Shown: positions 13,560 to 52,545 of the stretch, in pieces | Position numbering within the stretch: position 1 is the stretch's first letter | Layout: each line of letters starts with the position of its first letter | From: a bacterium | GTDB lineage: Bacteria > Patescibacteriota > Minisyncoccia > UBA6257 > UBA9933 | Assembly: GCA_021796335.1 (NCBI GenBank) | Contig: JAJYHZ010000002.1 | Coordinates: 192,998-256,997, forward strand | Length of the DNA stretch: 64,000 nucleotides | Reading direction: 5' to 3' | The notes under the pieces: generated by a model | The model's database searches: none | What the model saw: only the letters and a program-made list of their open reading frames with translations | Told to the model about the DNA's origin: nothing | Made by a program: the position numbers and the translations under genes

Positions 13560-13639
13560 GTCATACTGAGCGTAAGCGAAGCATCTCGCACCCTCAGAAA
13601 AACTCGATTCCTTCTCCGCCTTTGACGGATCAGAATGAC
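13560..13639. repeat. MITE-like dispersed repeat copy 1 (gtcatactga...ccgcctttgacggatcagaatgac; terminal inverted ends)
   Basis: related copies at 28216-28280, 49096-49158, 52455-52545; ends gtcatactga / tcagaatgac are inverted. Confidence 0.6.
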
Positions 13640-13761
13640 CGAGGGGAAGTTTCCGGGCAGAGGAATGACACTATCCAGAAATAAGCTTGACTTTATGAGC
13701 TAATAAGGTGTATTATTTATATAAAGAGAAATCCGCAGGTCGCGGGTTTTTTTAAAAAAAC

Positions 13762-13857
13762 AAATTTACACGAATGAGTAACGAATCTGCACGAATCACG
13801 AATATTGTTTATCGGTGATTCGTGAAAATTTGTTTTTAATTTGTGAGAATTCGTAAA
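13762..13857. promoter_or_regulatory. array of CACGAAT/CACAAAT heptamers in direct and inverted orientation immediately upstream of nusA
   Basis: acacgaat, aacgaat, cacgaat-cacgaat, then gtgattcgtg, atttgtt, atttgtg, attcgta; same word family flanks GxxExxY gene at 50609-50652/51024-51070. Confidence 0.5.
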
Positions 13858-13860
13858 TAG

Positions 13861-15057
13861 ATGTTGGATCTCAAATCACTTAACTGGGCGGTCAAACAAA
13901 TCGCGGAAGAAAAAGGATTGGCTGAAGACCAGGTGGCGGAAGCGGTGGAATCCGCGATTGCCGCAGCTTATAAAAAGGAATATTGCAAGAAGGGGGAAGT
14001 TGTAAAAGCGAAACTTGATTTAAAATCCGGTGATTTGAAATTCTGGAAAATCAAAACCGTTGTTGACGAATCAATGGTCAGAATTTTGACTGATGAAGAA
14101 GCGGCAGCTGAAGAGCCGCCCAAAGAAGGCGAAGAAAGACTGCCGCGGTATAATCCGGACAGGCATATTTTAATCGACGAGGCGAAAGCAACAGATCCGA
14201 ATGCAAATTTAGGAGATGAACTGCAATTTGAATTGGAAGTTCATCAGGATTTTGGAAGAATTGCTGCACAAACTGCTAAGCAGGTCATTTTGCAAAAAAT
14301 CCGTGAAGCGGAAAGAGACTCCATTAAAAAAGAATTCATTAATAAAGAAGGCGAGATAATCAGCGGCGTCATTCAGCGAATCGAAAGAGGAAATGTTTTT
14401 GTCGATCTCGGCCGCGCCATGGGAATCATGTTTTTCAACGAAGCGATTCCGGGAGAAAGATACAGAATTAGTGAAAGATTGAGATTTTATGTGGTGGCGG
14501 TTCAGGAAGAAGAAGGAAAGAGACCGGGAATTATTTTATCGCGTTCGCATCCGAACTTTGTTTCCAAGCTTTTTGAGCTGGAAGTTCCGGAAATTGCGGA
14601 AGGACTGGTGGAGATTAAAGCAATTGCGAGGGAAGCGGGAAACAGGACGAAAATTGCCGTGTTTTCTAAAGAAGAGGGAGTTGATCCTATAGGCGCTTGC
14701 GTCGGACAAAGGGGAACTCGCGTCATGGCGGTTACCAATGAGCTGGGAAACGAGAAAATCGATATTATCGAATGGCATGAAGATCCTGCTAAGTTTATTG
14801 CTGCGAGTTTGTCGCCGGCAAAAGTCATCAATGTCGATATTCTGCCGCGCCGGGAAGCGAAAGTTTTGGTCAACGACGATCAATTAAGTCTGGCAATCGG
14901 AAAAGACGGGCAAAACGCCAGATTGGCGGCAAAACTCACCGGATGGAAAATAGATATCCGCTCGCAGCAAAATCCGGATGCGGTTCAGGAAGGAGGAGTT
15001 TACGGGGAAGAAGCAGCCGGAAAGGATGATTCTGCTAAAGCCGAATCTGGAGAATAA
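13861..15057 (+). CDS. nusA: transcription termination/antitermination factor NusA
   Basis: N-terminal domain, S1 domain GEIISGVIQRIERGNVFVDLG, two KH domains with GxxG (GKDGQNARLAAKLTGWKIDI). Confidence 0.9.
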   Translation: MLDLKSLNWAVKQIAEEKGLAEDQVAEAVESAIAAAYKKEYCKKGEVVKAKLDLKSGDLKFWKIKTVVDESMVRILTDEEAAAEEPPKEGEERLPRYNPDRHILIDEAKATDPNANLGDELQFELEVHQDFGRIAAQTAKQVILQKIREAERDSIKKEFINKEGEIISGVIQRIERGNVFVDLGRAMGIMFFNEAIPGERYRISERLRFYVVAVQEEEGKRPGIILSRSHPNFVSKLFELEVPEIAEGLVEIKAIAREAGNRTKIAVFSKEEGVDPIGACVGQRGTRVMAVTNELGNEKIDIIEWHEDPAKFIAASLSPAKVINVDILPRREAKVLVNDDQLSLAIGKDGQNARLAAKLTGWKIDIRSQQNPDAVQEGGVYGEEAAGKDDSAKAESGE

Positions 15058-15169
15058 ATAATTTTTGAGATAAAATAAATAATGTAAAAAGTTTTTAACG
15101 TTCGCAAAGTTTTTAAGGCAATTAATCCAGTGCTTTATAAACTTTTGACATTATAACTTTATAAACTAA

Positions 15170-15721
15170 ATGGGTATTTATAATGTTAAAATCGGGGACG
15201 AGGCACCCGAGGTAATAAATGCGGTAATTGAAATACCGAAAAACAGCCAGAATAAATACGAATACGACGAAAAAGGAAATTATTTCAAACTGGATCGCGT
15301 GCTTTATTCCCCTATGCATTATCCGGCCGATTACGGATTTATTCCGGAGACCAGATCGGAAGACGGAGATCACTTAGACGTCATTATTCTAGGAAGTGAT
15401 CCGCTTTTTACGGGCTGCGTGGTGGCGATAAGGCCTATTGGCATTTTAAAGATGATTGATGACGGCGATCCGGATTTTAAAATTTTGGCGGTTCAGGAAA
15501 AAAATCCGCGATTTAAAAATATTAAAGACATCAAAGATATCGAATCCACTCATGAACATTCATTAAAAGAAATCGCGCATTTTTTCCAGGTCTATAAGGA
15601 CTTACAAGGGAAAAAGGTGGAAATTCAGGGCTGGGAAGGAAAAATGGCGGCTATTGAAGAAATAAAAAAAGCGCAGGAAACATTTGCGAATGAAACAAAA
15701 GAAGTGGAGTTGGTTAAATAA
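15170..15721 (+). CDS. ppa: inorganic pyrophosphatase (family I)
   Basis: YPADYGFIPETRSEDGDHLDVIIL signature. Confidence 0.9.
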   Translation: MGIYNVKIGDEAPEVINAVIEIPKNSQNKYEYDEKGNYFKLDRVLYSPMHYPADYGFIPETRSEDGDHLDVIILGSDPLFTGCVVAIRPIGILKMIDDGDPDFKILAVQEKNPRFKNIKDIKDIESTHEHSLKEIAHFFQVYKDLQGKKVEIQGWEGKMAAIEEIKKAQETFANETKEVELVK

Positions 15722-15749
15722 AAAAACAATCACTTGAATCAACTATTAA

Positions 15750-16373
15750 ATGGAAAATAAAAAAAATAACGAACAAATTTATAATCAATATCTGATTCCG
15801 ACCATTATTGAGAAGACTCAATACGGCGAAAGAGCTTACGATATTTATTCGAGGCTTTTAAAAGAAAGAATCATTTTTTTGGGGGGGGTGATTAATGACC
15901 AGGTTGCGAATATCATTATCGCCCAGCTTTTGTTTTTGGAAAACGAAGATTCGAAAAAAGACATTACTCTTTATATTAATTCTCCGGGAGGGTCGGTTTA
16001 CGCGGGCATGGCGATTTACGACACCATGCAATATATTAAACCGGATGTTTCGACAATTTGTGTCGGAATGGCGGCTTCAATGGGGGCATTTTTGCTTTTA
16101 TCCGGGGCTAAGGGAAAGAGAATTGCCTTGCCGAATTCCCAGATTTTGCTTCACCAGGTGATGGGAGGTGCGGAAGGCCAGGCGACGGACGTGGCGATTA
16201 CAGCCAAACAAATCGTAAAAGTGAAAGATAAGCTGAATCAGATTATTTCCAAGCATACCGGACAGTCGTTTGCAAAAGTGGAAAAAGATACGGATAGGGA
16301 TTTTTATATGACTCCGCAGGAAGCTAAAGAATACGGAGTAATTGATGAAATTATTAAGTCAAAAGGAAGATGA
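15750..16373 (+). CDS. clpP: ATP-dependent Clp protease proteolytic subunit
   Basis: [42 protein letters not shown] with catalytic Ser/His context. Confidence 0.9.
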
Positions 16374-16410
16374 TTAAAATAGCGACGAGCGTATTAGAGA
16401 CAAGGTAAAA

Positions 16411-16437
16411 ACAATCCTAAAAGCGGATTGTTTTTTT
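16411..16437 (+). terminator. rho-independent terminator after clpP
   Basis: caatcc-taaaagc-ggattg + ttttttt. Confidence 0.7.
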
Positions 16438-16462
16438 ATGGGCGTTAAAATATTATTTTTAT

Positions 16463-17032
16463 ATGCAGCCAGCCGAATTTGAAATCTTATTTGAAAAAGT
16501 TGCCAGTCTAATAACTTTGGATATGTTTGCAAAAGAAACGGATTTGGAAGGCAATTTCCCCAAAAAAGATCCGAAAACCTCCGCATGGGATGCGGTAGAT
16601 ATATTTTGCGATAATGAATACATAGACATCGGAGACGGCAGATACGTCTCGAATAAAGTTTTTTCCAAAGTTAGGGTGCCGTTTTTTATTATTTTGGCGG
16701 AATTTGAAAGCAGATTATTTCGAATTCACGAGTGGAATGGAGAGAATATCAATGAGTTAAATGATAAAAACCTGAATGACTATATAAAAGAATTAACAAA
16801 TAATCCCGAACTGATGAAACTGCAAAAAGAATACAGGAATAGGAGCGAATTTATGAATGATATGAAAGCGATCAGTTCATTTAGAAACATAATTATGCAC
16901 GTTAATAATAATTTGGAAAAAAACGTGAGCATAGAAACAGTTGTAAAGAGGAAAAAGCAGATTTTCAGGGTTTTGGCCGCATTGCAGGAGATTTTGGACA
17001 AAATGGCGAGTTCCGCATTAAAGAATCGATAA
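16463..17032 (+). CDS. hypothetical protein with HEPN-type RNxxxH motif (possible standalone HEPN RNase / Abi-like)
   Basis: SSFRNIIMHVNNN matches R-[NHQ]-x3-H HEPN catalytic motif in predicted helical C-terminal half; no partner gene evident. Confidence 0.4.
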   Translation: MQPAEFEILFEKVASLITLDMFAKETDLEGNFPKKDPKTSAWDAVDIFCDNEYIDIGDGRYVSNKVFSKVRVPFFIILAEFESRLFRIHEWNGENINELNDKNLNDYIKELTNNPELMKLQKEYRNRSEFMNDMKAISSFRNIIMHVNNNLEKNVSIETVVKRKKQIFRVLAALQEILDKMASSALKNR

Positions 17033-17119
17033 GATAAAACGTCTGGGCGGTTTTATCATGGGTTGTTTTTTATTCTTGATAAATTTATACTGATTTAAAT
17101 CTAATTAATTTTAAAAATT

Positions 17120-18160
17120 ATGAAAGTGTTATTTTCAGAGATTGAAAATTGGGAAGCGGATTATATAAAGCGACAAATCGGCAATCAGGCGGAATTATTT
17201 TTCAACGAGCAGAAAATAATCAAAAGCAATCTTCCGGAACAAAAAGACTTTGATGCAATTTCAGTTTTTGTCGGTTCGAAAATAGACAAGGAAGTAATAG
17301 ATAACTTTCCAAATTTAAAATTAATTACAACCAGGTCAACGGGTTTTGATCATATTGATTTGGATTATGCCAAACAAAAAGGGATCCAGGTGGGATATGT
17401 GCCGGGATACGGAGACAATACCGTGGCGGAATACGCTTTCGGATTACTTTTGGCATTATCAAGAAAAATTTATGACGGAGTCGATCGAATCAAGGAAACG
17501 GAAAATTTCAATTTTGACGGTTTGCGAGGGTTTGATTTAAAAGGGAAAACAATGGGAGTTTTGGGAACCGGGAGAATCGGCCAGCATACCATCAAAATCG
17601 CCAACGGATTCGGCATGAATGTGATCGCTTATGACGCTTTCCAGAAAGAAGAATTGGCGCAAAGTTTGAATTTCAAATACGTTTCTTTGGATGAATTATT
17701 GGGGCAGGCGGATGTAATCAGCATTCATTTGCCATATATTGCTCCTTCGACAATTTCAGGGCAAGCGTCAACGCATCATTTGATAAATAAAGACAATATT
17801 TCAAAAATTAAAAAAGGGGCGATTTTGATCAATACGGCTCGCGGGGCGATTGTGGAAACCGATGCATTGGTGCAGGCTCTGCAACAAGGAATTCTGGGCG
17901 GAGCCGGATTGGACGTTCTGGAAGAAGAAGGGGTTTTGCAGGTTGAGAGGGGAATGGCGTTTAGGGACAGTTTGCGAAGCGCGGATATGAAAACTGTTTT
18001 GGAAGATCATGTTCTGATGCAAATGCCCAATGTTCTGATTACGCCGCATAACGCTTTTAACACAGTTGAAGCTTTAAAAAGAATATTGGATACTGACATA
18101 AACAATATTAAATTTTATTTAAGCAAATCGCAGGTTTCTTTCCCTGTTCCGGCAAAATAA
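17120..18160 (+). CDS. D-isomer-specific 2-hydroxyacid dehydrogenase (D-lactate dehydrogenase-like)
   Basis: NAD-binding GVLGTGRIGQ, catalytic R/E/H arrangement, 346 aa. Confidence 0.8.
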   Translation: MKVLFSEIENWEADYIKRQIGNQAELFFNEQKIIKSNLPEQKDFDAISVFVGSKIDKEVIDNFPNLKLITTRSTGFDHIDLDYAKQKGIQVGYVPGYGDNTVAEYAFGLLLALSRKIYDGVDRIKETENFNFDGLRGFDLKGKTMGVLGTGRIGQHTIKIANGFGMNVIAYDAFQKEELAQSLNFKYVSLDELLGQADVISIHLPYIAPSTISGQASTHHLINKDNISKIKKGAILINTARGAIVETDALVQALQQGILGGAGLDVLEEEGVLQVERGMAFRDSLRSADMKTVLEDHVLMQMPNVLITPHNAFNTVEALKRILDTDINNIKFYLSKSQVSFPVPAK

Positions 18161-18307
18161 ATGAGAAATAAAAAAGGATTTATACAGGTTCTGATAATTT
18201 TGGCAATAATCGGCGCGATAATTTTTGCGATTGTTTGGTTTGTGCAAAATCAACAATGGAGCAAAATCGAAAATACTAATAATAATAATGTAACTAATAC
18301 CCAATAA
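18161..18307 (+). CDS. putative 48-aa single-TM peptide (not in ORF track, <60 aa)
   Basis: ATG directly abuts ldh stop; MRNKKGFIQVLIILAIIGAIIFAIVWFVQNQQWSKIENTNNNNVTNTQ; ends 4 nt before gap start. Confidence 0.3.
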   Translation: MRNKKGFIQVLIILAIIGAIIFAIVWFVQNQQWSKIENTNNNNVTNTQ

Positions 18308-18311
18308 TAAT

Positions 18312-19382
18312 ATGACAAAAATAGCGATAAACGGTTTTGGCAGGATTGGCCGGTTGTTTTTAAGACAGGCGATCGAATTATCTTTTCGACAAGCTCAGGG
18401 CGAACCGGAATTGGAAATTGTGGCAATCAATGATTTGGGGAATTTAGAAAATCTTGCCTACTTGTTGAAATATGATTCTACTTACAGACAGTTTCCTGGA
18501 GAGGTTTCATTTGAGGGCGATCCTTTGACAGGCTCAGGAAAAATCATAATAAGCGGAAAGGGAATAAAATTTATTTCCGAAAAAGACCCGACCAAATTAC
18601 CGTGGAAAGATTTGGGAGTGGATATTGTTGTTGAATCAACAGGAGTTTTTGAGACCTTTGAAAAGTCAAAAGCGCATATTAATGCGGGCGCAAAAAGAGT
18701 GGTTTTAACTGCGCCGGCAAAAGATGCTGACGGAACTTTCGGAAGAACAATTCTAGTCGGGATGAATGAAGGTGAAATAAAATCCTTTGAAATAACTTCG
18801 AATGCGTCATGCACAACCAACGCCACTTCGCCGGTAATCGCGATTATGGCGGAAACAATCGGTATTGAAAAAGCGATTTTAAGCACTGTGCATGCAATGA
18901 CAAACACTCAAACCGTTGTTGATACGGCGGTGAGGGGAGGTGATTTCAGGCGGGGAAGAGCGGCAAGCCATAATATAATTCCGTCAACAACCGGAGCGGC
19001 AATTGCCGTGACGAAAGTTTACAAAGATTTGGAAGGAAAATTTGACGGAATCGCCATGAGAGTTCCGGTAATAACCGGTTCAATCGCGGATATTACTTTT
19101 GTGGCCAAAAGAAAAACTTCAACTGAGGAAATTAAAGAAATTTTCAAAAAAGCGGCGGAATCCGAACAATGGAAGGGAATTTTAAAAGTAACGGAGGATC
19201 AGATCGTTTCCAGCGACATAATAGGCCAGCCGTACGGAGCGATTGTTGATTTGAAATTTACAAAAGTAATAGATGGCGATTTGGTAAAAATTCTGTCGTG
19301 GTATGATAATGAATGGGGGTATACGGCAATGCTGGTAAAACATGTTTTAAAAGCAGCCGAATTAATAACTAACGGCCAATAG
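18312..19382 (+). CDS. gap: glyceraldehyde-3-phosphate dehydrogenase, type I
   Basis: INGFGRIGR NAD motif, active-site SNASCTTN, C-terminal WYDNEWGY. Confidence 0.9.
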   Translation: MTKIAINGFGRIGRLFLRQAIELSFRQAQGEPELEIVAINDLGNLENLAYLLKYDSTYRQFPGEVSFEGDPLTGSGKIIISGKGIKFISEKDPTKLPWKDLGVDIVVESTGVFETFEKSKAHINAGAKRVVLTAPAKDADGTFGRTILVGMNEGEIKSFEITSNASCTTNATSPVIAIMAETIGIEKAILSTVHAMTNTQTVVDTAVRGGDFRRGRAASHNIIPSTTGAAIAVTKVYKDLEGKFDGIAMRVPVITGSIADITFVAKRKTSTEEIKEIFKKAAESEQWKGILKVTEDQIVSSDIIGQPYGAIVDLKFTKVIDGDLVKILSWYDNEWGYTAMLVKHVLKAAELITNGQ

Positions 19383-19398
19383 CAAATAACTATTTACT

Positions 19399-20280: not shown

Positions 20281-20438
20281 AGTGCATTTTTACTTTAGCC
20301 TATTTGTGGCGGGCGAGTATGGATTACAGAATTGTTTTCCATGTGTTTGATAGTGAACTTTTTACTAGGTTGTTTTTGTGTTATAATAATAATTAGATAA
20401 TTTCTCCATTTAAAAAAATCCAATACAGGAGGTGCGTT

Positions 20439-21215: not shown

Positions 21216-21234
21216 CTAAAATTTCAAATTATCT

Positions 21235-21258
21235 GCCCCGCTTAAAGCGGGGCATTTT
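21235..21258 (+). terminator. rho-independent terminator
   Basis: gccccgc-ttaaa-gcggggc + attttca. Confidence 0.6.
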
Positions 21259-21260
21259 CA

Positions 21261-21294
21261 ATCGTATATCTTGACGATCGTCAAGATATACGAT
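21261..21294. repeat. palindrome family A copy 1 (atcgtatatcttgacgatcgtcaagatatacgat)
   Basis: perfect 34-bp inverted repeat; variant of 38-bp palindromes at 34471 and 35096. Confidence 0.8.
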
Positions 21295-21727
21295 CATTCA
21301 ATCTATAAACCCCTGGTGCAACCAGGGTTATGTTTGAAGGTGACGCTATATGCATATAATGCAATTAAACACAGTCAAAAAAACAATAATTTTTAGCACA
21401 GGCGTGCCATATAATTGATTTCAATCTCCATAATACCACGCTACGAATAAATTTATATAATTTAGATTAAATAATTTATTAATTATCACAAAGAATAGCC
21501 GGCGATTAAGCCGGCAAAAACAATGCCATCGGATGTCAGTCTGATGGTCGTTTTGAATTATAAGACTCGGTTATCGCCTGAGCTTACTTACCGGCAGGCA
21601 GGCTTGTCAAAGGCATTTTTATATTTAAGCCAAAATTTTATCCCTCGAGAAATTCAGGAAATAAAATTTTAGCAGTTCGTAATTCAAAGCGAGATATTTT
21701 CTCGGATTTATCTGCTATAATAAATTT

Positions 21728-22177: not shown

Positions 22178-22346
22178 CGGCGAAGGGCGAATAGTAAATA
22201 GAAAATAACAAATCAAGAATATTTTATTCGGAACTTTTCCGATTTTTTGTTTTCCAATCAAATTTAGTATTTAATCGGTAATTAAAAATTTATTCGGCAG
22301 TGAAATTATTGACATCATTGCCGAATTTTTTTAGGATTATGGCAAT

Positions 22347-23168: not shown

Positions 23169-23613
23169 TCGGCAAGTAAATACTCGGTAGTTCGGCAAGG
23201 ATTACTATAAGTAGTTTGGCATTAAGTCTAATATTCGACGATCCTGCTGCCGGCAGGCAGGCGTCAAATATTAGATCGGAAATTAAAAATTAGTCTTTAT
23301 TCCAATAAATGAAACAATTTACCCTATATCAGCGTTTTCCTTACAAATCCCTTTTTGGGAGCAGGTTGATTCGATGTCTCGCGAAAGCGGCTGTACAGAG
23401 GATTGACAAAAGAATAAAGCAATTTTAGAATTAATTATTATATTGGTTTGCCCGGTTAACGGGGCAGACCTGCCGGAAGAAATTTAGAACGCATAAATTT
23501 CTACGGGGTTTAGAGTGAGGCTAAACCCAAGGATAGTTATAAGCATTAGTTTTTAGTGATTAGAATTTTACTGATTACTAACGACTGATATCTAACAACT
23601 AATCACTTTTTTA

Positions 23614-23640
23614 GTCTCGCTCAAAAGCGAGTTTTTATTT
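23614..23640 (+). terminator. rho-independent terminator within S-layer gene upstream region
   Basis: ctcgc-tcaaaa-gcgag + tttttattt. Confidence 0.6.
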
Positions 23641-23803
23641 GTTATTAGGACTGTTCTTTTTGTAAAACTGCCACCTAATCCTCACGAGGGTTCGGTAGTT
23701 GGTCGATTATAGATAGGATAGTCTTCTGAAATTCGGTTTTTGTACGATAAAAATTTGTCGTAAAACAAAACAATTAAATTAGTAAATAAAAATTTAGTTC
23801 AAA

Positions 23804-27182: not shown

Positions 27183-27229
27183 CCAATCAAATTTTGAGCG
27201 ATCGCTCAAAATTTGATTGGTTATCCACA
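27183..27229. repeat. palindrome family B copy 2 (38-bp perfect) immediately followed by TTATCCACA DnaA-box consensus
   Basis: ccaatcaaattttgagcgatcgctcaaaatttgattgg + ttatccaca; ~70 bp upstream of 27301 gene and its TATAAT-like -10. Confidence 0.8.
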
Positions 27230-27300: not shown

Positions 27301-27852
27301 ATGATAATACATCATATTTTGGAAATAATCAGGGCAGCCGGAATTATTTCGGCTGATGTCGCTTTTACCGATTATCACACTTCTTATAGGAGGATGCGGC
27401 GGATGATGAGATATGGAGTTGATTCTTACTTGGAATTAAACGATTTTAAAAAACATAAGGAGTCCGAGAGAAACAGGTTTAACAGCCTCCTTTGGTATTT
27501 GAAGAAAAAAGGATTGATTGAACGGAAAAAAGGTAATAAATGGAAGATAACGGAAGGCGGAATAAAATGGCTAAAGACGCATTCTCATAAATTGATTCCG
27601 TTTGAAAGCAATGAATTAAAAAAGGGAGAGAAAATAATAATTATTTTCGATATCCCCGAGAAAAGCAAAAAGAAACGAGATTGGCTTAGGAAAAGTTTGG
27701 TTAACATCGATTTTAAAATGCTTCAAAAGAGCGTGTGGATGGGAGATTCGAAATTGCCGGAGGAATTCATTTTGGAAATGAAAAATTTAAACATAATTTC
27801 CTATATCCATATATTTTCGATTAAAGAGAAGGGATCGATTGATTTTAAATAG
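27301..27852 (+). CDS. wHTH + Cas2/VapD-like domain protein (PaaX-like architecture), paralog 1
   Basis: C-terminal IIIFDIPEKSKKKRDWLRKSLVNIDFKMLQKSVWMG matches Cas2 pattern (hhhYDh..KRR.kh.k.L..yG.R.Q.SVF); N-terminal LWYLKKKGLIERKKGNKWKITEGG wing-like; paralog at 34536. Confidence 0.5.
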   Translation: MIIHHILEIIRAAGIISADVAFTDYHTSYRRMRRMMRYGVDSYLELNDFKKHKESERNRFNSLLWYLKKKGLIERKKGNKWKITEGGIKWLKTHSHKLIPFESNELKKGEKIIIIFDIPEKSKKKRDWLRKSLVNIDFKMLQKSVWMGDSKLPEEFILEMKNLNIISYIHIFSIKEKGSIDFK

Positions 27853-27922: not shown

Positions 27923-27960
27923 CCAATCAAATTTTGAGCGATCGCTCAAAATTTGATTGG
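27923..27960. repeat. palindrome family B copy 3 (38-bp perfect), immediately downstream of 27301 gene
   Basis: identical to 27183-27220; followed by degenerate box ggatgtccaca. Confidence 0.8.
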
Positions 27961-28215
27961 ATGTCCACATTTGATATTCGGTTTTATTTTTTATAATGGA
28001 ATTAAGCCTTGTGAGGGGGCTGGATATTTTAATTAAATAGTTTTCATTTGCTGTGGAAAGTATTTTAGGGTCTATGAGTATACAGCTCCCTCAGAAATCT
28101 TTTATAAAAATTTTTAATTGAACTACGCCGTTTTCGGCGTATTTTTGGTTGAAAGAATGTTAAGTAATTGCGATTTATGAATTTAAATAACTTTTAGTTG
28201 CGAATCGTGCGCTTT

Positions 28216-28280
28216 GTCATTTTGATTCACTCGCTGGCGAAGAAAGGGATTCTTTCCCGCCTTTGGCGGACCAGGATGAC
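28216..28280. repeat. MITE-like dispersed repeat copy 2 (gtcattttga...cgcctttggcggaccaggatgac)
   Basis: aligns with 13560-13639 copy over both ends. Confidence 0.55.
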
Positions 28281-33661: not shown

Positions 33662-33973
33662 AAAAAACCTCCTTTCATACGGGAAAAATTAATTCCAGAT
33701 CATGCGTATAAACCGGTAAATTTTTACCCCCTCTCTTTTTAAGATTAAAAACGGGCTATAGAAGACATTATTAAAAAAGAGGTTGTTTGTCAAAGCGTCC
33801 GGCGCTGTTCGGAAGTATGGAATCTAATTATTTTGTTATACTGAACCATTAGCTGTCGGAAAAACGCCTTGTAAAATATAAATTGAAGCAACTAGAGATT
33901 TTTCGCAAAACTTAAAATGACTTTCCAAACAGCGCTAAAGCGGCGGGAGAATATTTTATGCTAAAATAAGCGC

Positions 33974-34470: not shown

Positions 34471-34508
34471 TTATCGTATATTTTGACGATCGTCAAAATA
34501 TACGATAA
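34471..34508. repeat. palindrome family A copy 2 (ttatcgtatattttgacgatcgtcaaaatatacgataa), 28 bp upstream of 34536 gene
   Basis: perfect 38-bp inverted repeat. Confidence 0.85.
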
Positions 34509-34535
34509 GATGAAAAATATTAATTATTAATTAGA

Positions 34536-35093
34536 ATGAAAGGAGAAAAACGATTAAGAATTTTAGAGGGAATTGAATTAGGGATGGATACTATCGGAGA
34601 TTTAGTTTTTATATTTAGTTTGCCGTACGGAACTTCCTTTTCTAAAATGAGATATCTGCTTGCAAATAGGGATAGATTTAAAAAATCAGACAATAATAAT
34701 GAAAAAAAGAGATTCCAGGATTTAATGTATCATTTGCGAAGAGACGGTCTAATCGACGAATCCAAAAGAAAGCTCATTTTAACTTTAAAAGGAAAAAAAT
34801 TTTTAAATAGAAAAAAATTTACAACTTTTTCATATAAAAAAGAAAGCGACAATATAATAAAAATAATAATATTTGATATTCCCGAATCTCAGAGAAGAAA
34901 AAGGGTGTGGTTGAGGCAGGCTATAAAAACAATGGGGTTCCAAATGATACAAAAAAGCGTCTGGTTGGGTAAAGTAAAAATCCCGGAAGAATTTTTAAAT
35001 GATTTAAAAAATATGAATCTGATGAATTATATAGAGATTATCGGAATTACAAAGATAGGAACTTTAAAACAAATGAAATATTTTAATCTTTAA
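34536..35093 (+). CDS. wHTH + Cas2/VapD-like domain protein (PaaX-like architecture), paralog 2
   Basis: IKIIIFDIPESQRRKRVWLRQAIKTMGFQMIQKSVWLG aligns with paralog 1 and Cas2 pattern; N-terminal LMYHLRRDGLIDESKRKLILTLKGKKFL wHTH-like. Confidence 0.5.
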   Translation: MKGEKRLRILEGIELGMDTIGDLVFIFSLPYGTSFSKMRYLLANRDRFKKSDNNNEKKRFQDLMYHLRRDGLIDESKRKLILTLKGKKFLNRKKFTTFSYKKESDNIIKIIIFDIPESQRRKRVWLRQAIKTMGFQMIQKSVWLGKVKIPEEFLNDLKNMNLMNYIEIIGITKIGTLKQMKYFNL

Positions 35094-35095: not shown

Positions 35096-35133
35096 TAATC
35101 GTATATTTTGACGATCGTCAAAATATACGATTA
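35096..35133. repeat. palindrome family A copy 3, 3 bp downstream of 34536 gene stop
   Basis: taatcgtatattttgacgatcgtcaaaatatacgatta perfect 38-bp inverted repeat. Confidence 0.85.
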
Positions 35134-35307
35134 GGGCATGCGTGGGGAGCGCATGTCTAGCCAGATTTTTTTAAGTCCAATATTTTTAAGTCCAATATTT
35201 CGCGCAGTTTTTCGGTATTTTGCCTGGGCCTTTTAAATTTGTTATAATTAATTTAAATAAGTGCTTCCTGGGATAGTATTCTTTTAAAAAATAAACTTCT
35301 TAACTTT

Positions 35308-42981: not shown

Positions 42982-43026
42982 TTTTTATCTATTGCTTCAA
43001 GCAAGATTTCTTTAACTATCATAATT

Positions 43027-43977: not shown

Positions 43978-43979
43978 TT

Positions 43980-45814: not shown

Positions 45815-45816
45815 CT

Positions 45817-46614: not shown

Positions 46615-46686
46615 ATCTATGTTTAAAAAAAAGTATATAAATTTAATAAGGAAATTTGTTGGCAATATAGAAAGAGAAAGAGTGGG

Positions 46687-47832
46687 GTGGCAGAAAAATT
46701 TATTTTAATAAATATGAGGATAGGAATTAATTTAATTCAATATAGGGGATTACATGGTATTGAGGCTTTTGCTCGAGAAATTATCGAAAAATTGATTTTA
46801 TTGGATAAAGATGATGAATTCATCCTTTTTACGAATCAAAATTCTTCAGTTATTTTTAAATTTAGTGGTTCAAATGTAAAAATAATTGAAGAAAAATTTA
46901 AAAATTTTTCTAGATTTAATTTAATTTTATATCAACAAATCTTGTTGCCTCGGATACTAAAAAGAGAAAAAATTGATTTGCTTTATTGCCCATCTGTAGC
47001 TATGCCAATTTTTTATAAAAATAAAATTGTTACTATCCATGATTGTGCAGCTTTTAAATTCAAGAACGAGGTGGGGTTCTCATCAAGAATTTATCTTAAA
47101 ATGGCATTTTGGTCCGCTAAAAATTTTAGTAAAAAAATTGTAACAATTTCCGAATTTTCAAAAAATGAGTTGATAAATGATTATAAAGTTAATCCAGATT
47201 TAATTAGTGTTATCTCTGAAGGAGTTGCGCGAATTCCAGACGTTTCTCTGGATTTTATTGAAAAAACAAAAGAAAAATTTAAAATAGAAAATCCATATTT
47301 TTTTTATTTAGGAAACATTCATTATCGAAAAAATTTAATTGGTTTGTTGGAATCTTTTAAAAAATTTAAAGAAAATCATAACGAATTTTATTTGGTTTTT
47401 GGAGGAAGGATAAATAGTTGTTTTATTAATATTCGGGAAGAAGCGAAGAGATTAAATATTAGTAATAGTTTAATTCAGACGGGGTTTATTTCAGATGAAG
47501 AAAAAGTGGCATTATATAAAGGTGCAATCGCCCATGTCTTTCCTTCTTTTTATGAGGGATTTGGACTTTCTATTTTGGAGGCACAGTCTTTGGGTGTCCC
47601 GGTTTTGACTTCAAACATAACTTCAATGCCGGAAGTGGCTGGGAAAGGGGCCTTATTTGTTAACCCTTATAGTATAGAGGAAATTGCAAGTGGTTTGGAA
47701 GAAATCGTTTTTAATAAAGAATTGAGAAAAAAAATAATAAATAGAGGATTTGAAAATGTAAAAAGATTTTCTTGGGAATTTACTGCAAGGAAAATGATTA
47801 ACATTTTTGAAATTTTTAATAATTACGAATGA
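46687..47832 (+). CDS. family 4 (GT-B) glycosyltransferase
   Basis: C-terminal EGFGLSILEAQSLGVPVLTSN motif. Confidence 0.75.
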   Translation: MAEKFILINMRIGINLIQYRGLHGIEAFAREIIEKLILLDKDDEFILFTNQNSSVIFKFSGSNVKIIEEKFKNFSRFNLILYQQILLPRILKREKIDLLYCPSVAMPIFYKNKIVTIHDCAAFKFKNEVGFSSRIYLKMAFWSAKNFSKKIVTISEFSKNELINDYKVNPDLISVISEGVARIPDVSLDFIEKTKEKFKIENPYFFYLGNIHYRKNLIGLLESFKKFKENHNEFYLVFGGRINSCFINIREEAKRLNISNSLIQTGFISDEEKVALYKGAIAHVFPSFYEGFGLSILEAQSLGVPVLTSNITSMPEVAGKGALFVNPYSIEEIASGLEEIVFNKELRKKIINRGFENVKRFSWEFTARKMINIFEIFNNYE

Positions 47833-47867
47833 ATTCGATAGTTTAATTTCGTTTCAAATAAAAATAA

Positions 47868-49088
47868 ATGTCAATGCTTAAAAAATATAAAAAATTATTT
47901 CAAAAGTTTTTGGGGAATATTTATAGAAAAAGTTTGGAATGGCAACGTAATCTAATTAAGGCATTGAAGTTTTTTTATTTATTGGCAATGTTTCCGATTG
48001 AAATAGTCGGGGATATTTTATTTTTAGGGAAAAGGTTTAAAAAAGGGAAGATACATAATCCTAAGAGAATTTTAATCGTAAAAATCGACCAGTTTGGGGA
48101 TGTTCTTTTTTCGACCTTTATGTTGCCCTTGATTAAAGAAAAATATCCGGAGGCGCAAATAGATTACCTTATAAATCCGAAAACGGAATTTGTCATTAAA
48201 AATAATCCCCATATTTCCAATATTTATTATTGGGAAGATCCATTTTTGCATTTTCTTTTGGGCAGAGAAAAAAGCAATAAGCCGCCGATTTGGAAAATTT
48301 TAAAAAGGGATTTTGATTTGGTTAAAACAATAAGAAAAGAAAATTACGATGCGGTTATAAATACACGCGCTTATTCCCCCAGCACGAATATTTTTTGGAA
48401 ATTATTAAGGCCGAAAAATTTAATCGCTTTTGACATTGCGGAACAAAGCTTTTTGGCGGATTTTTGGGTTGATTACGATTTATATGACGAAGAATGGAGG
48501 AATTATTTAAATCTGTTGTTGCCTTTGGGAATAAATAAAAGTAAGGCAGAATTTAAACCGGGATTCTTTAATTTTAATGAAAAAGAATTTATGGAAAAAC
48601 TTCCCGGGTTAAATAAAAAATTTATTGTGATTTCGCCAGTTTCTTTTGACAAAGAAAGGAATTGGCCAGTGGAAAGATGGAAAGAGGTTATTGATTTTTT
48701 AACAGAAAGAAATTATCAAGTGGTTTTAACGGGGCTTAAATCGCAGGAAAATTATCTTTTAAGTATTTCTGCGGCAGTTGCTTCGCCAAATCTATTTATC
48801 ATTTCAGATATTTCAATTCCGGGATTGGGCAGTGTTTTTAACAATGCCGAATTTTTTATTGGAATTGATTCTTTTCCAGCTCATTTAGCCTTGGCTCTAA
48901 ATAAACCAATAATTTGTTTTGTTAACGAGCAAATTTATTTTCTAAAGAACTTTTCTCAAAAGAAATTTTATATGGACGCGAGGTGTATGATCCCTTTAGT
49001 TGATAAGGTAAAAATTGTTCCAACAACAAATAGCACAAGCGAATATGTTATTTCGTTGGCAGAGGAGTTGATTGGCGGGGAGATGTAA
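47868..49088 (+). CDS. family 9 glycosyltransferase (heptosyltransferase-like)
   Basis: ILIVKIDQFGDVLFSTFMLPLIKEKYPEAQIDYL N-terminus and C-terminal GIDSFPAHLA motif typical of GT9. Confidence 0.6.
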   Translation: MSMLKKYKKLFQKFLGNIYRKSLEWQRNLIKALKFFYLLAMFPIEIVGDILFLGKRFKKGKIHNPKRILIVKIDQFGDVLFSTFMLPLIKEKYPEAQIDYLINPKTEFVIKNNPHISNIYYWEDPFLHFLLGREKSNKPPIWKILKRDFDLVKTIRKENYDAVINTRAYSPSTNIFWKLLRPKNLIAFDIAEQSFLADFWVDYDLYDEEWRNYLNLLLPLGINKSKAEFKPGFFNFNEKEFMEKLPGLNKKFIVISPVSFDKERNWPVERWKEVIDFLTERNYQVVLTGLKSQENYLLSISAAVASPNLFIISDISIPGLGSVFNNAEFFIGIDSFPAHLALALNKPIICFVNEQIYFLKNFSQKKFYMDARCMIPLVDKVKIVPTTNSTSEYVISLAEELIGGEM

Positions 49089-49095
49089 AGGAAAC

Positions 49096-49158
49096 AGATT
49101 CTTCGTCCGCCGGCTGGGCGGATTCAGGATGACAAGGAGGCGGATCAGGATAACAGAA
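49096..49158. repeat. MITE-like repeat fragments copy 3 (tandem ggcggattcaggatgac / ggcggatcaggataac)
   Basis: shares ggcgga(t)caggatgac core with copies 1, 2, 4. Confidence 0.55.
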
Positions 49159-49175
49159 ACTAATAGCGAATGGCG

Positions 49176-50627
49176 TTATTGTCTTTGCAGGATGATGTTT
49201 TTAATATCAATCGCGGTTTCTTCTTTTAAAATAATCAGAGAGACAATATAAGCCAGAGCGGAGGAGATTATTATCAGGAGGACATTGATGTTGAGGTTTA
49301 ATAGCCCTTCGATAAAGCCGACCATAACAGCCGAGGCGATAATTGTTTTTGTAAAACTGCTAATAACTCTAAACTGAAGGTGTTTTTTAAGACTGAAGTA
49401 TAGATACAGGGTTATTATGATTGTGTTTATAAGCGAAGCCAAAGCAGATCCGGCAATGCCAAATGGAGGTATGAGCAAAATATCAAAAAACAGATTTCCG
49501 AAAATTCCAAGAGCCGCATAAATAAGCAATTGACGCTCTTTTCTAAGGGCAAATAATTGATTGCCAAGCGCATTGGACATAAAGGTGGGAATAAACATCA
49601 GGCTCATTATCATAAAAGTGATTGTGGCCGGAATATACCGGTATCCGAATAATAAAACGATAATTTTTTGCGATAATAAAATTCCGCCAATTGTTAAGGG
49701 GAGGGCTAAAATTATCATCAGTGCCAAACTTTTTTCAACTATTTTTACCAGCCTTTCTTTTTGGTCGGCTAATTTCGCGGTTTGGGGGAAAAGGGCAACG
49801 GTTATCATGGCAGGCACAATAAAAATAATTTGGGTTATTCTTAATGGCGCGGAGTAGTAGCCTACCTCGGTGATGCTTTTTAACCAAGCAATCATAAGGT
49901 TGTCCGTGTTGAGCATTACTGTTCCCATAACAGCCAGAATTCCCATGGGCCAGCTGGAATAAAGAAGGGTTTTTATTATGCTTTTCGAAAAAGTTTTTTT
50001 GACGTTTTTGAGATAACGGCGGAACGGATAGAATGCGCTTATCATGCCCAGTCCTGTTCCAAGCACATATCCAAGAGAAAGAGCTTTCGGGGTTTTGGAA
50101 TAATAAAGGGCGAGAAAACCGCCGGCGACAATAAAGACATTGGTGATAATTTGAACAACAGCTTCGATCTCCATTTTTTCCCAGGCGCGGGCAAGAGAGG
50201 CGCCAAAATCCCTCAAGCTGTCAAAGGCGACAATTAGAATAACTATCGGCATCAAGTCGGCGACGGCTTTATCTTTAAAGAGAAGAGGAGACAAAACAAT
50301 TACTGAGATGGAGATGAGGGCGAGCATTATCAGTTTTATAACTAAGGCGGTGGAAAAATATTTTTCCTGGATAGAAAGATCCTTGCTGGATTCGCGGACA
50401 ATGGTCGCGTTTAATCCGAAATCGGCGAAGGTTGTGAAAAATCCGGCTAAACTTAAGGCATAAGAAAAAGCGCCGTATCCGTTAACGCTGAGGACGCGAG
50501 CGGCATAAACGATGATGGCCAGCTTGATAAGCTTTGAAAAAATCTGGCCGAAAAACAGCCAAAAGGTATTTTTGGCGACAGTCTGGCGGGCGGTTTTATT
50601 TTTGAATAAGAATTCACGAATATTCAC
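49176..50627 (-). CDS. wzx: Wzx-type polysaccharide flippase (MOP superfamily)
   Basis: 12-14 TM helices, polysacc_synt-like N-terminus; GTG start inferred. Confidence 0.7.
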   Translation of the reverse strand: MNIREFLFKNKTARQTVAKNTFWLFFGQIFSKLIKLAIIVYAARVLSVNGYGAFSYALSLAGFFTTFADFGLNATIVRESSKDLSIQEKYFSTALVIKLIMLALISISVIVLSPLLFKDKAVADLMPIVILIVAFDSLRDFGASLARAWEKMEIEAVVQIITNVFIVAGGFLALYYSKTPKALSLGYVLGTGLGMISAFYPFRRYLKNVKKTFSKSIIKTLLYSSWPMGILAVMGTVMLNTDNLMIAWLKSITEVGYYSAPLRITQIIFIVPAMITVALFPQTAKLADQKERLVKIVEKSLALMIILALPLTIGGILLSQKIIVLLFGYRYIPATITFMIMSLMFIPTFMSNALGNQLFALRKERQLLIYAALGIFGNLFFDILLIPPFGIAGSALASLINTIIITLYLYFSLKKHLQFRVISSFTKTIIASAVMVGFIEGLLNLNINVLLIIISSALAYIVSLIILKEETAIDIKNIILQRQ

Positions 50628-50652
50628 AAATTAAACACAAATTTCACAAATG
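50609..50652. promoter_or_regulatory. heptamer array (cacgaat, cacaaat x3) overlapping wzx start and GxxExxY stop
   Basis: gaattcacgaatattcacaaattaaacacaaatttcacaaatg; ~85% identical to reverse complement of nusA-upstream array. Confidence 0.5.
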
Positions 50653-51045
50653 CTAATTAAGCACTCTTCGAAATTCAAGCTTGTTATGTTTGAAATTAGC
50701 AATAATTCCCAATTTTAATCCTGTAGCTTCTAAATATCGTAGAACTTGCTTTATGTCATTTTGACTTATTTTCCAAATAACTTTTGTTTCCAATAAGATT
50801 TGATTATTTATTATAAAATCAGCAAAAAATTCACCCAACTCTTCATCTTCAAATTTTGTTTTTATCTGAACTTCTTTTTTATCGAGAAGACTATATTTCC
50901 CCAGTTTTATAGCAATGGCTTTTTGATAATGTTTTTCTTGGTATTTATTTCCCAGCTTATTATGCACTTCAAATAGAATTCCCATTAGTTTATAACTTAA
51001 TTCTGGATAAATAAGTTTTTCTTTATTCGTGATATTCGTGATCAT
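50653..51045 (-). CDS. GxxExxY-family protein (predicted PD-(D/E)xK nuclease fold)
   Basis: YPELSYKLMGILFEVHNKLGNKYQEKHYQKAIAIKL carries the GxxExxY signature (GILFEVHNKLGNKY). Confidence 0.7.
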   Translation of the reverse strand: MITNITNKEKLIYPELSYKLMGILFEVHNKLGNKYQEKHYQKAIAIKLGKYSLLDKKEVQIKTKFEDEELGEFFADFIINNQILLETKVIWKISQNDIKQVLRYLEATGLKLGIIANFKHNKLEFRRVLN

Positions 51046-51070
51046 TTGTGTAAATTTGTGCGTAAATTAT
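51024..51070. promoter_or_regulatory. heptamer array (attcgtg x2, atttgtg x2, cgtaaat) overlapping GxxExxY start
   Basis: ttattcgtgatattcgtgatcatttgtgtaaatttgtgcgtaaatt. Confidence 0.5.
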
Positions 51071-52404
51071 TTCTGGTTCACAAAAAATAACTTAAGCGTT
51101 TTTAAAACAATAAGCAAATCCAAAAAAATCGAGCGGTTTTCAATGTAAAATATGTCATATTGGAGTTTTTCGACTGCGTCTTGAACGGAGGCGCCGTAGC
51201 GGTAATTGATTTGCGCCCAGCCGGTGATACCGGGTTTGGTCAAATGGCGGATTTCGTAATAAGGGATTTGATCCTTCAATTCTTTGACGAATTCGGGGCG
51301 TTCGGGACGGGGGCCGACAAAAGAAATATTTCCTTTAAAGACGTTGACTAGTTGCGGCAATTCGTCTAAGTGTGTGTATCTTAGAAATTTTCCGAATTTA
51401 GTTACGCGGTTGTCGCCGGGCTGGGACCATTGAGCGCCGTTTTTCTCGGCATCAAGGCGCATCGTTCTGAATTTATAAAGAGTAAATTCTTTTTCATTTT
51501 TTCCGATGCGGATTTGCTTATAAATCACAGGACCGAGAGAAGTCAGTTTGCCGATTAAAAATATAATAAGAAAAAACGGAGAAAAAATAATCAAGGCAAT
51601 TAAGGCGAAAATTTCATCAAGAATGTTTTTCCCCATGTCATATAGGCCGGTTTTATAAATGAAGTTTTCCAAAAACCAAGCTTCTTCCAACTCGGTTAGC
51701 GGGACCTTTTGGAAAATATTTTCATAGAATTCGGAAAGGTTGAGAACTCGGATTCCCAAGGGGAGATTTTTATAAATTAATTTCGCCAAGCGGATTTTTT
51801 CGGTTAAGTGGGCGGGAATGACAATTAATTTTATATTGTTTTTTAAAATGATTTGAGAAAGATTTTCGGCATTGGTCAGCTCATTTTCATGGATTTTCAA
51901 TTTAATTTGAAAACCGAATTGAGCGTGGATTTTTAAAAATTCGTCGAGTTTTTCCGGCAGATCATTTTTTTGATCAGAGGTGATAATTAAAACATTTTCG
52001 GGCGATTTTGATCTGATATTGAAAAAGTTAAAAAAGTATCGCCAGGCGAATTCCAAAATTCCAAAAACAATTATAAAGATAAGCAAGTTTGTTTTAGGAG
52101 CAATGCCAAAGAAGGGAATCAAATAAAAGAAGGCGATGGCTATAAAGATATTAATCAAAAGAGAAATGGCGAATTTTTTGAAAAAATTAAGATTATTGCG
52201 CAGAGTTTTGCTTTCGTAAAGGTCGTTGATATAAAAGACAATCAGCCAGATGATGAAAATAAGAGAAAAAGGCAGGATGTGAAGAGAAATCTTGCTCGCG
52301 AATTGTTGCGGACCATAACGCAAATCAAGGGTCAGAAGCAGAGATCCGTATAAAATAATAATATCGCTTATTAAAAGAAGAAATTGTTTAAATTTGGAAA
52401 GCAT
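51067..52404 (-). CDS. undecaprenyl-phosphate sugar phosphotransferase (WbaP/WcaJ-like bacterial sugar transferase)
   Basis: N-terminal TM bundle, C-terminal IRIGKNEKEFTLYKFRTM...GPRPERPEF catalytic domain. Confidence 0.8.
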   Translation of the reverse strand: MLSKFKQFLLLISDIIILYGSLLLTLDLRYGPQQFASKISLHILPFSLIFIIWLIVFYINDLYESKTLRNNLNFFKKFAISLLINIFIAIAFFYLIPFFGIAPKTNLLIFIIVFGILEFAWRYFFNFFNIRSKSPENVLIITSDQKNDLPEKLDEFLKIHAQFGFQIKLKIHENELTNAENLSQIILKNNIKLIVIPAHLTEKIRLAKLIYKNLPLGIRVLNLSEFYENIFQKVPLTELEEAWFLENFIYKTGLYDMGKNILDEIFALIALIIFSPFFLIIFLIGKLTSLGPVIYKQIRIGKNEKEFTLYKFRTMRLDAEKNGAQWSQPGDNRVTKFGKFLRYTHLDELPQLVNVFKGNISFVGPRPERPEFVKELKDQIPYYEIRHLTKPGITGWAQINYRYGASVQDAVEKLQYDIFYIENRSIFLDLLIVLKTLKLFFVNQK

Positions 52405-52454
52405 TAATTCTTAAATCGTTCTAATTAGTTTAATTTTGATTATGAGCTTTTTCC

Positions 52455-52545
52455 CCGTCGATTGGCGGATCAGGATGACGCAGAGGGGACTCAGGATAGC
52501 ACCCTTTTCGCTTTATTCAGGACGATATGGCAGACGATAGACGGT
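52455..52545. repeat. MITE-like repeat fragments copy 4 (ggcggatcaggatgacg, actcaggatagc, attcaggacgat)
   Basis: same core as copies 1-3; with copy 3 brackets the minus-strand wzx-GxxExxY-wbaP block. Confidence 0.55.

Follow-up and report, generated by a model that had tools for sequence, protein, structure and literature searches.

Intergenic hairpin repeats in a Patescibacteriota contig and their relation to GTC-tagged elements of the dRS3/NTS type

Repeat loci in the window

A stretch of 64,000 nucleotides of contig JAJYHZ010000002.1 from a bacterium of the Patescibacteriota (64 kb, here called the window) carries a small repeat at five intergenic loci. The window is contained in a 236-kb metagenome contig (ENA ERZ27233565 k141_687534; also NCBI MAG GCA_021836325.1). 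The neighbors of the copies are housekeeping genes. Copy A is located upstream of nusA and copy D between a sugar transferase gene and a DsbA-like gene, both in divergent promoter spacers; copy C is located 3' of genes, in a convergent spacer, where it begins 9 nt past the stop codon of a glycosyltransferase-9 gene and has a flippase gene as its other neighbor. The inspected host DNA comprised the window and about 9 kb on each side (about 83 kb in total); these additional flanks contained no repeat loci, and the density is low with five loci per 83 kb. A preliminary description of this DNA had interpreted the repeat as a non-autonomous mobile element of 80 bp resembling a MITE (a miniature transposable element with inverted repeats) or, alternatively, as a structured RNA repeat. 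This reading was partly supported: the repeat is a small dispersed inverted-repeat element, yet neither a classical MITE nor an RNA element. The basic unit is a hairpin of 25-38 nt formed by an imperfect palindrome, not an 80-bp element, and with high probability the window repeats are members of a superfamily of GTC-tagged hairpins which comprises dRS3/NTS, the CGTC-tagged REPs (repetitive extragenic palindromes) and the SRM (Ssn-related motifs).

The 16-mer GGCGGAYCAGGATGAC with up to three mismatches was found five times in the window as compared to 0.32 matches expected, and none of 100 shuffled sequences reached five. One of these five matches, at 14496, is located inside nusA and is a chance match. 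The 9-mer CAGRATGAC occurs exactly four times in the window, each time on the plus strand and each time in a spacer between long open reading frames (ORFs), which agrees with the earlier statement that the copies are intergenic. Window units were furthermore recovered with a covariance model, R1, built from foreign copies only (alignment A5, 12 base pairs), with which the window was scored with filters off. Because of these three results, chance can be excluded as the origin of the repeats, and a small non-coding dispersed inverted-repeat family with at least four copies is confirmed in the window. A bare repeated 13-mer is unremarkable, as 401 exact repeated 13-mers were counted in the window and about 204 in shuffles; for GC-rich repeated 13-mers, 23 were observed and 1.1 expected.

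The strand reading 5'-GTC-AT..hairpin..-3' is called the tagged strand. On this strand a unit has the form 5'-(T/C)GTC, AT(T/C)C..stem-loop..G(A/G)AT, C-3'; on the ATGAC-ending strand it reads (A/G)G-AT(T/C)C..stem..loop..stem..G(A/G)AT-GAC. The variant found in the window is bipartite: its basal stem of 5 bp, which starts with AT, is separated by a small TC/TC-like internal loop from a GC-rich inner stem (CCGCC/GGCGG). Each window unit has AT at the start of its stem, and the 5-bp stem and the internal loop are followed by 5-7 further bp and by loops of 3-5 nt. GTC directly precedes the AT-starting palindrome in all seven ATGAC/GTCAT units of the window; a decayed copy at 33.8 kb has GTT. A-right has the tag GGTC and D has CGTC, and the remaining five (A-left, A-third, B-left, B-right and C) have TGTC. 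Five of the seven window units, namely A-left, A-right, A-third, B-right and unit C, have a C behind the palindrome; in the family as a whole, 275 of 461 units have a G at position -1, which corresponds to this base. C is a single unit; A, B and the decayed 33.8-kb copy are inverted pairs whose tags point outward; and tandem decayed tails accompany C and D.

The units are given below with their tagged strand, which we infer to be minus for the five main units of the window and plus for the three left-hand ones. By the strand on which R1 matched, all sites are plus except 13560-13585, which is minus. Bits and E-values refer to R1, and z-scores to folding as single-stranded DNA (ssDNA) as compared to shuffles.

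13560-13590, plus strand: A-left, tGTCATACTGAGCGTAAGCGAAGCATCtcgc; short form with decayed basal stem (ATAC/GCAT); R1 match at 13560-13585, 20.7 bits, E=0.033
13606-13639, minus strand: A-right, plus strand reads GATTCCTTCTCCGCCTTTGACGGATCAGAATGAC; 20.8 bits, E=0.032; fold -4.7 kcal/mol, z=-1.67
13641-13669, minus strand: A-third, degenerate and tentative, directly after copy A, plus strand reads gaggggaagTTTCCgggcagaGGAATGAC; GGAATGAC tail and TTCC/GGAA stem by reading; weak fold, z=-1.0; not reported by R1 in the window scan
28216-28247, plus strand: B-left, degenerate, tGTCATTTTGATTCACTCGCTGGCGAAGAAAGG; GTCAT tag and CTTCGCCAGCGAG core
28248-28280, minus strand: B-right, plus strand reads GATTCTTTCCCGCCTTTGGCGGACCAGGATGAC; 28.5 bits, E=0.00099; inner hairpin -5.4 kcal/mol, z=-2.09
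33802-33870, plus strand: left part, decayed, of a fifth composite; GCGCTGTTCGGAA is separated by about 20 nt from TTTTGTTATACTGAACC; homologous to 13524-13572
33897-33921, minus strand: weak short-form unit, tentative, plus strand GATTTTTCGCAAAACTTAAAATGAC; 16.9 bits, E=0.19; closes the composite 33835-33921
49097-49133, minus strand: unit C, the best-preserved one, plus strand GATTCTTCGTCCGCCGGCTGGGCGGATTCAGGATGAC; 39.7 bits, E=6.1e-6; fold -6.9 kcal/mol, z=-2.11
49139-49154, minus strand: partial repetition, in tandem, of C's 3' arm and tail, GGCGGATCAGGATAAC; one mismatch to the 16-mer
52455-52479, minus strand: remnant of unit D, inner hairpin CCGTC/GGCGG and tail ATCAGGATGAC, 5' basal arm gone; exact match to the 16-mer
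52486-52525, minus strand: two decayed tandem tails, tentative, GGGGACTCAGGATAGC and TTATTCAGGACGAT; assigned by similarity

A-left and A-right form a tags-outward composite (13560-13639), as do B-left and B-right (28216-28280; z=-2.44 for the whole composite). The inverted termini GTCATACTGA and TCAGAATGAC had been described correctly, but copies A and B cannot be aligned over their full length: only both termini and the right-hand 35 nt or so are common, the left and interior parts are dissimilar, and a 15-nt gap was required in MAFFT. Both the inverted termini and the limited alignment arise because each copy consists of two modules with different stems in opposite orientation. The tandem repetition reported for 49096-49158 is present, but the second copy of the doubled core consists only of the 3' arm and the tail; likewise, the shorter fragment at 52455-52545 exists, but only the 3' arm and the tag are left of its unit, with two decayed tails behind. 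The two possible 5' partial fragments carrying gcgctgttcggaa are located at 13524 and 33802 instead of 13507 and 33800. The match of GCGCTGTTCGGAA between these two sites extends as TTTTGT(C/T)ATACTGA at similar spacing, and pairwise alignment of 33802-33870 with 13524-13572 revealed a 13/13 block followed by a 14/15 block in the same order. Since the GC-rich 13-mer match continues in order, the 33.8-kb spacer contains a fifth, decayed composite (33835-33921), in which the tag is mutated from GTCAT to GTTAT.

Two intergenic stretches, 21570-21605 and 23237-23266, both carry CCGGCAGGCAGGC; one of them (GATCCTGCTGCCGGCAGGCAGGCGTC) begins like a unit and lacks the ATGAC tail. Similar stems, GCCTGCCTGCCGG..GGCAGG, were seen within true units of two foreign loci, L161 and L222, and the two stretches may be further decayed relatives.

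Hairpin covariation and distribution of the family

A first scan of genome contigs with a 15-base pattern was poorly specific, and about 110 of the 120 loci listed were chance matches in GC-rich coding DNA. A more specific pattern yielded at least 120 metagenome loci. An energy-based unit caller was dropped as permissive (670 calls as compared to 201 on reversed sequence), and an 8-mer tail together with the covariance model was used instead. The tail G[GA]ATGAC occurs 702 times in 1.14 Mb of fetched loci as compared to about 69 times expected, and only 180 of these occurrences were search seeds. Among the loci listed, homologous units were found in Armatimonadota, Chitinophagaceae, two uncultured Gammaproteobacteria, Candidatus Magasanikbacteria, Chloroflexia and Terriglobia. 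Units of NTS type (GATTCCCGC..GCGGGAATGAC) share loci with units of the window type, for example in L040.

The hairpin of the family is supported by covariation. In alignment A2, which contains 80 distinct 25-mers picked by the anchors GAT-N17-ATGAC alone, the covariation score was 0.305 as compared to 0.151 in shuffles, of which 0 of 500 reached the observed value, and to 0.10-0.14 for slid partners. The covarying pairs include pair 3 (UA 31, CG 24) and pair 8 (GC 29, AU 28); the latter counts belong to a covarying pair which, in one subfamily, lies beyond an unpaired TC/TC internal loop. In bystander copies the frame is kept while both sides of the stem change, as in ATTC/GAAT, ATCC/GGAT and ATGC/GCAT, and further two-sided changes are ATTCCCGC/GCGGGAAT, ATTCCGGG/CCCGGAAT and ATCCTGAA/TTCAGGAT. 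This architecture with covarying stems is spread across Bacteroidota, Acidobacteriota, Chloroflexota, bacteria of the candidate phyla radiation (CPR), phage-like contigs and others.

Outside the window, 48% of the tails are found in the 13.5% of foreign-locus sequence that lies outside long ORFs. Adjacent tails less than 400 bp apart were arranged 112 times with the tags outward, 40 times with the tags inward and 103 times in tandem. The tags-outward form is thus the commonest arrangement, typically with 45-110 bp between the tails and a median composite length of about 95 bp; composites on the one hand and single or tandem partial units on the other are equally common. Identical flanks of 2, 4, 5, 6 or 8 nt were found in none of 98 composites, the flanks being T..A, a mere continuation of the palindrome. 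As compared to the flanking genes, 106 units were co-oriented and 114 antisense, with 45 in convergent and 30 in divergent spacers. Stem mismatches in 396 distinct units comprised 136 G.T and 114 A.C (p=0.18).

Some loci deserve separate mention. The short form GATTCTTCGCTTCGCTCAGAATGAC is present as an exact 25-mer in 35 IMG/VR contigs, 11-12 of which share a syntenic module of portal, scaffold and capsid-like genes. A unit at 563-587 of L246 (1-1671) lies in frame within an ORF of 557 aa ('..CHSERSEES..'), which is reminiscent of the palindromic elements inserted in frame in Rickettsia. Clusters of units occupy every spacer among rplC, rplD, rplB and rpsS in a metagenome contig of CPR-like type (L187, 4400-8700). 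Units are therefore tolerated inside an essential operon. Presumed 'gene cassettes' between units proved on inspection to be ordinary genes, including a ribosomal protein operon. A bias in orientation relative to GC skew was discarded as evidence, since composition-matched control 8-mers gave similar or larger values (81:32, 89:35; but also 33:45). In those of the loci L125-L280 that measure at least 3 kb and have an absolute GC skew of 0.04 or more, the G-rich strand carried the ATGAC-ending orientation in a ratio of 242:139 (44 vs 12 loci, p=2e-5, sign test), a bias which is not established; if it held, the strand cleavable by Ssn would be placed mainly on the C-rich strand.

GIY-YIG genes and other neighboring features

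When 2606 ORFs of unit-bearing loci were clustered all against all, one module of phage genes emerged, together with two families of small proteins that recur among the loci. One of these is a single-domain GIY-YIG protein of 95-110 aa (PF01541, E=1e-12 to 1e-18). Ten such genes were identified by tblastn, all ten in unit-bearing loci and none in the loci of about 0.8 Mb hit by chance in the first scan, which were reused as a negative control. A unit tail was located within 300 bp of the gene in eight of ten cases, as compared to a fraction of 0.26 for a random 300-bp segment (p=6e-4). Four of the ten genes (in L140, L192, L224 and L275) have units on both sides (background 0.023). These flanking units belong to the window subtype, as illustrated by GTCATCCCGATCCGCCGGTTGGCGGAGAGGGATC and GATCCTTCATCCGCCAGCCGGCGGATTCAGGATGAC in L140. 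By size and single-domain architecture these proteins fit the Ssn family (cd10448), of which they are candidate members.

Genes of the four-helix-bundle family 23S-rRNA-IVS (PF05635) recur in five unit-bearing loci (L137, L161, L180, L195 and L231). Their product was rejected as a partner of the repeats: the genes are not adjacent to units, and three of the five have no unit within 500 bp. A recurrent transposase family was not found among the 2606 ORFs by clustering, a search that included no profile scan. In L245 (6128-6721), a PaaX/Cas2-like gene, homologous to genes of the window described next, is bracketed by GTC-tagged units.

Besides the GTC-tagged hairpins, the window contains another repeat system whose sequence is unrelated to theirs. 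It consists of near-perfect palindromes of about 36 bp centered on (G)CGATCG(C), e.g. CCAATCAAATTTTGAGCGATCGCTCAAAATTTGATTGG and ATCGTATATTTTGACGATCGTCAAAATATACGAT, at 27183-27229 and 27923-27969, at 34473-34509 and 35098-35134, and also at 9624-9670, 21261-21297, 10133-10168 and 60064-60099. Two palindrome types each bracket their own ORF with a PaaX-like or Cas2-like domain (27301-27852 and 34536-35093). Between copy A and nusA, at 13690-13860, a sigma-70-like promoter sequence (TTGACT-17-TATTAT) is followed about 20 nt further on by a CCGC/GCGG hairpin with a T-run and then by a 100-bp tract of CACGAAT/ATTCGTG motifs, part of which recurs inverted at 50612-50644. Judged by these motifs, the region could encode a tiny transcript or attenuator together with an array of regulator-binding sites. 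In many bacteria, the slot between tRNA-Thr and tRNA-Trp upstream of secE-nusG holds tuf; here this slot (57327-58603), upstream of the usual secE-nusG region, contains an ORF of 276 aa (57604-58434) with no Pfam match.

Interpretation and comparison with known families

The proposed interpretation relies on a system described in Neisseria. There, the dRS3 repeat (ATTCCC-N8-GGGAAT) often lies within a longer oriented sequence, the NTS CGTCATTCCCGCGMAVGCGGGAATCYRG, and NTS-like SRM forming hairpins of 20-50 nt occur in many phyla (Chenal et al. 2025, Nat Commun, PMC11893778). The nuclease SsnA is a 94-aa single-domain GIY-YIG protein (cd10448) that binds to the ssDNA hairpin and cleaves on its upstream side; cutting depends on GTC before the palindrome and binding most on the C after it, and neither the reverse strand nor double-stranded DNA nor RNA is a substrate (PMC11893778). 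Of the ssnA homologues, 71% have an SRM nearby and 42% have SRM on both sides, and in Neisseria, cutting by Ssn restricts incoming transforming ssDNA and limits its integration (PMC11893778). Compared by sequence, the bases conserved in our units are exactly those reported as critical for binding and cutting by Ssn. By analogy with what has been shown elsewhere, the tagged strand, when single-stranded, would fold into a hairpin, a nuclease of the Ssn family with about 95 aa would bind this hairpin and the following C, and it would nick a few nt upstream of the GTC tag. Since GIY-YIG genes taken as ssn are flanked by units and composites lack target-site duplications, we propose that units probably spread by an Ssn-dependent single-strand process analogous to that of REP and RAYT. 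The window copies would then be served in trans by a gene located elsewhere in the genome, or they would be relics.

Several observations weigh against this interpretation. We know of no demonstration of Ssn-dependent transposition by anyone. A GIY-YIG homologue was found neither in the window (tblastn) nor in the 9 kb or so on each side, and the GIY-YIG proteins neighboring foreign units gave only weak NCBIfam matches to group-I-intron endonucleases and no relative in the PDB. The published SRM pattern HGTCWYN(0-2)YYVSBRHN(0-5)WNVSBRGN(0-2)RNCYNB has no match in the window and its flanks (0.17 in shuffles), because it assumes a continuous stem whereas the window units are bipartite. Several units of the window carry A.C mismatches in the basal stem when read on the tagged strand, and their folding does not surpass that of shuffles: A-left (z=0.02) and B-left (z=0.47) fold like shuffled sequences, and unit D, in which R1 scores the tail alone (52468-52479, 10.2 bits, E=4), has no stable fold (z=0.71). 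Such mismatched units may not be cleavable. Because of these mismatches or missing arms and the poor folds, several window units are probably relics, while C and B-right are well preserved.

It is a serious possibility, though short of a probable one, that all window copies are inert relics, decayed and without a current partner enzyme or function in this genome. This would fit four of the seven to eight window units folding no better than shuffles, the missing 5' arm of D, the mutated tag at 33.8 kb, the lack of a GIY-YIG gene in 83 kb and the low density of loci, none being present in the extra flanks. The preservation of C and B-right (E=6e-6 and 1e-3) argues against it, as does the fact that these 83 kb are only a part of the genome; furthermore, it concerns present activity and not identity, and is compatible with membership in the GTC-tagged superfamily. 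A classical MITE would be a deletion derivative of 65-130 bp of an insertion sequence (IS) with a DDE transposase, with terminal inverted repeats GTCAT..ATGAC, mobilized in trans and generating target-site duplications. Tags-outward composites are indeed the commonest of the adjacent pairs, and A and B have this form. Target-site duplications, which the preliminary description had proposed to look for, are lacking at A and B and in the 98 composites of other genomes. Composites are matched in frequency by single and tandem partial units, the two presumed terminal repeats of one composite are independent units, usually with different stems, and the interiors are unrelated between copies. With a 25-38 nt hairpin as its unit, a spread across phyla that ties the family to no single IS, and no recurrent transposase family in the ORF clustering of the loci, the MITE reading in its classical sense is very improbable.

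Hardly more probable is a structured RNA repeat, that is a cis-regulatory hairpin, mRNA stabilizer, terminator or small RNA under selection at the RNA level. The hairpins covary, window copies have G.U pairs on the plus strand (ATTCT/AGGAT), units inside operons such as the ribosomal protein genes of L187 are transcribed, and REP-like hairpins are generally known to affect mRNA stability (see also PMC3733652). However, no Rfam family matched at its gathering score in the window except for the five tRNAs. Orientation relative to genes is unbiased, and G.T mismatches are not in excess over A.C, so that the G.U pairs of the window copies are no evidence. The hairpins are not followed by T-runs, units lie in divergent promoter spacers (A, D) besides 3' of genes (C), and Ssn does not bind RNA (PMC11893778). 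Terminators had also been dismissed by eye for lack of T-runs; likewise dismissed by eye were integron attC sites, with the wrong core sites and housekeeping neighbors, and a hammerhead-like core, which resembles CUGA..GAAA but has neither stem I nor the GA. Finally, a classical REP/BIME element mobilized by RAYT, a Y1 transposase of the IS200/IS605 type, would follow the same logic: extragenic palindromes of 20-40 nt with a conserved tag at one end, which form inverted dimers, leave the target unduplicated and are recognized as single strands (PMC2817692, PMC3733652). Here the tag is (T/C)GTC and not GTAG, no tyrosine transposase flanked by CGTC-type repeats was found by Di Nocera et al. (PMC3733652), and the sole recurrent neighbor gene found encodes a GIY-YIG protein, as judged by ORF clustering without a systematic Y1 profile scan. 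We regard this origin as very unlikely.

Returning to the GTC-tagged superfamily, we put forward a further suggestion as speculative and rather doubtful. The bipartite form (TGTC tag, 5-bp basal stem, TC/TC loop, variable inner stem; short version GTCATTCTGAGCGAAGCGAAGAATC) might represent a distinct widespread subclass of SRM which is missed by the published motif, the form being present in genomes of CPR-like type, in soil phyla and in contigs of tailed phages; it would have its own GIY-YIG nucleases of new specificity, and tags-outward composites of 80-115 bp without target duplication would be its propagating form. If this were true, Ssn proteins would be REP/RAYT-like mobilizing enzymes rather than only restrictors of transformation. 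The significance of the window itself is small, as the family was described in 2013 and its enzyme partner assigned in 2025. The range of the family now includes an uncultured lineage with small genomes as well as phage-like contigs. Counts of SRM and pairings of Ssn with motifs in surveys are probably underestimates, because a common bipartite variant escapes the published pattern. The 98 composites without duplication, together with the GIY-YIG link, which was recovered blind from metagenomes, provide independent support for Ssn and SRM as a REP/RAYT-like selfish or domesticated pair. For annotation, caution is advisable since units yield spurious small ORFs ('..RFFASLRMT..', '..HSERSEES..').

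As compared to known systems, the repeats share with bacterial MITEs (Correia/NEMIS, RUP, MITEAba12) their small size, their non-coding nature, a dispersed intergenic location and inverted ends; in contrast to these, the unit is a single hairpin without target-site duplication, conserved interior or parent IS. GTAG-tagged REP, BIME and REPIN-RAYT systems are likewise made up of small extragenic palindromes with an orienting tag, in which an ssDNA hairpin is recognized by a small nuclease whose gene is flanked by repeats, and they also form dimers without target duplications; the differences are a GTC tag instead of GTAG and a GIY-YIG fold instead of HUH/Y1.

The likeness to the elements described by Di Nocera, De Gregorio and Rocco (BMC Genomics 2013) as 'CGTC-tagged REPs' is closer. 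They carry the tetranucleotide CGTC (or CCTC) as a tag at one end, often changed to TGTC, their stems start with AT, they are mostly found as inverted dimers, and no transposase was found for them; dRS3 constitutes family CGTC-1, and of the Rickettsia palindromic elements RPE-6 belongs to CGTC-1 and RPE-4 to CGTC-4 (PMC3733652). The window units agree in the tag, in a stem that begins with AT (A-T and T-A as first and second pairs in the described families), in the short loops and in the short untagged tail beginning with C, and the family also in the prevalence of inverted dimers, in that no dedicated transposase was found and in an occasional in-frame insertion into a gene, here in L246. The described families have a continuous stem of 8-9 bp, a loop of 4-5 nt and a CCA tail, whereas the window variant is bipartite; furthermore, CPR bacteria, Acidobacteriota, Armatimonadota and Chloroflexota were all missing from the phyla given for the CGTC type in 2013.

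From the NTS and SRM, the window units differ by their bipartite form in place of the continuous stem ATTCCCGCG/CGCGGGAAT, by a tag that is mostly TGTC, by the lack of an ssn gene in the 83 kb or so inspected, and by a host that looks like an uncultured small-genome bacterium (a metagenome-assembled genome) and not like a proteobacterial symbiont or pathogen. Their frame matches that of the Neisseria dRS3/NTS (CGTCATTCCCGCG..GCGGGAATC), the NTS consensus being the reverse complement of the unit frame G-ATTC..GAAT-GAC. Both have GTC before an AT(T/C)C palindrome and C after it, and the imperfect hairpin of 20-50 nt is apparent here from the covariation in A2, from the R1 matches and from the inner hairpins of B-right and C (z about -2.1). 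Both are multi-copy, intergenic, clustered, often arranged as inverted pairs and spread over many phyla, and in related loci single-domain GIY-YIG genes of about 95 aa are flanked by units. The window repeats most probably belong to the known family of dRS3/NTS, CGTC-tagged REPs and SRM, which had gone unrecognized in the preliminary description.

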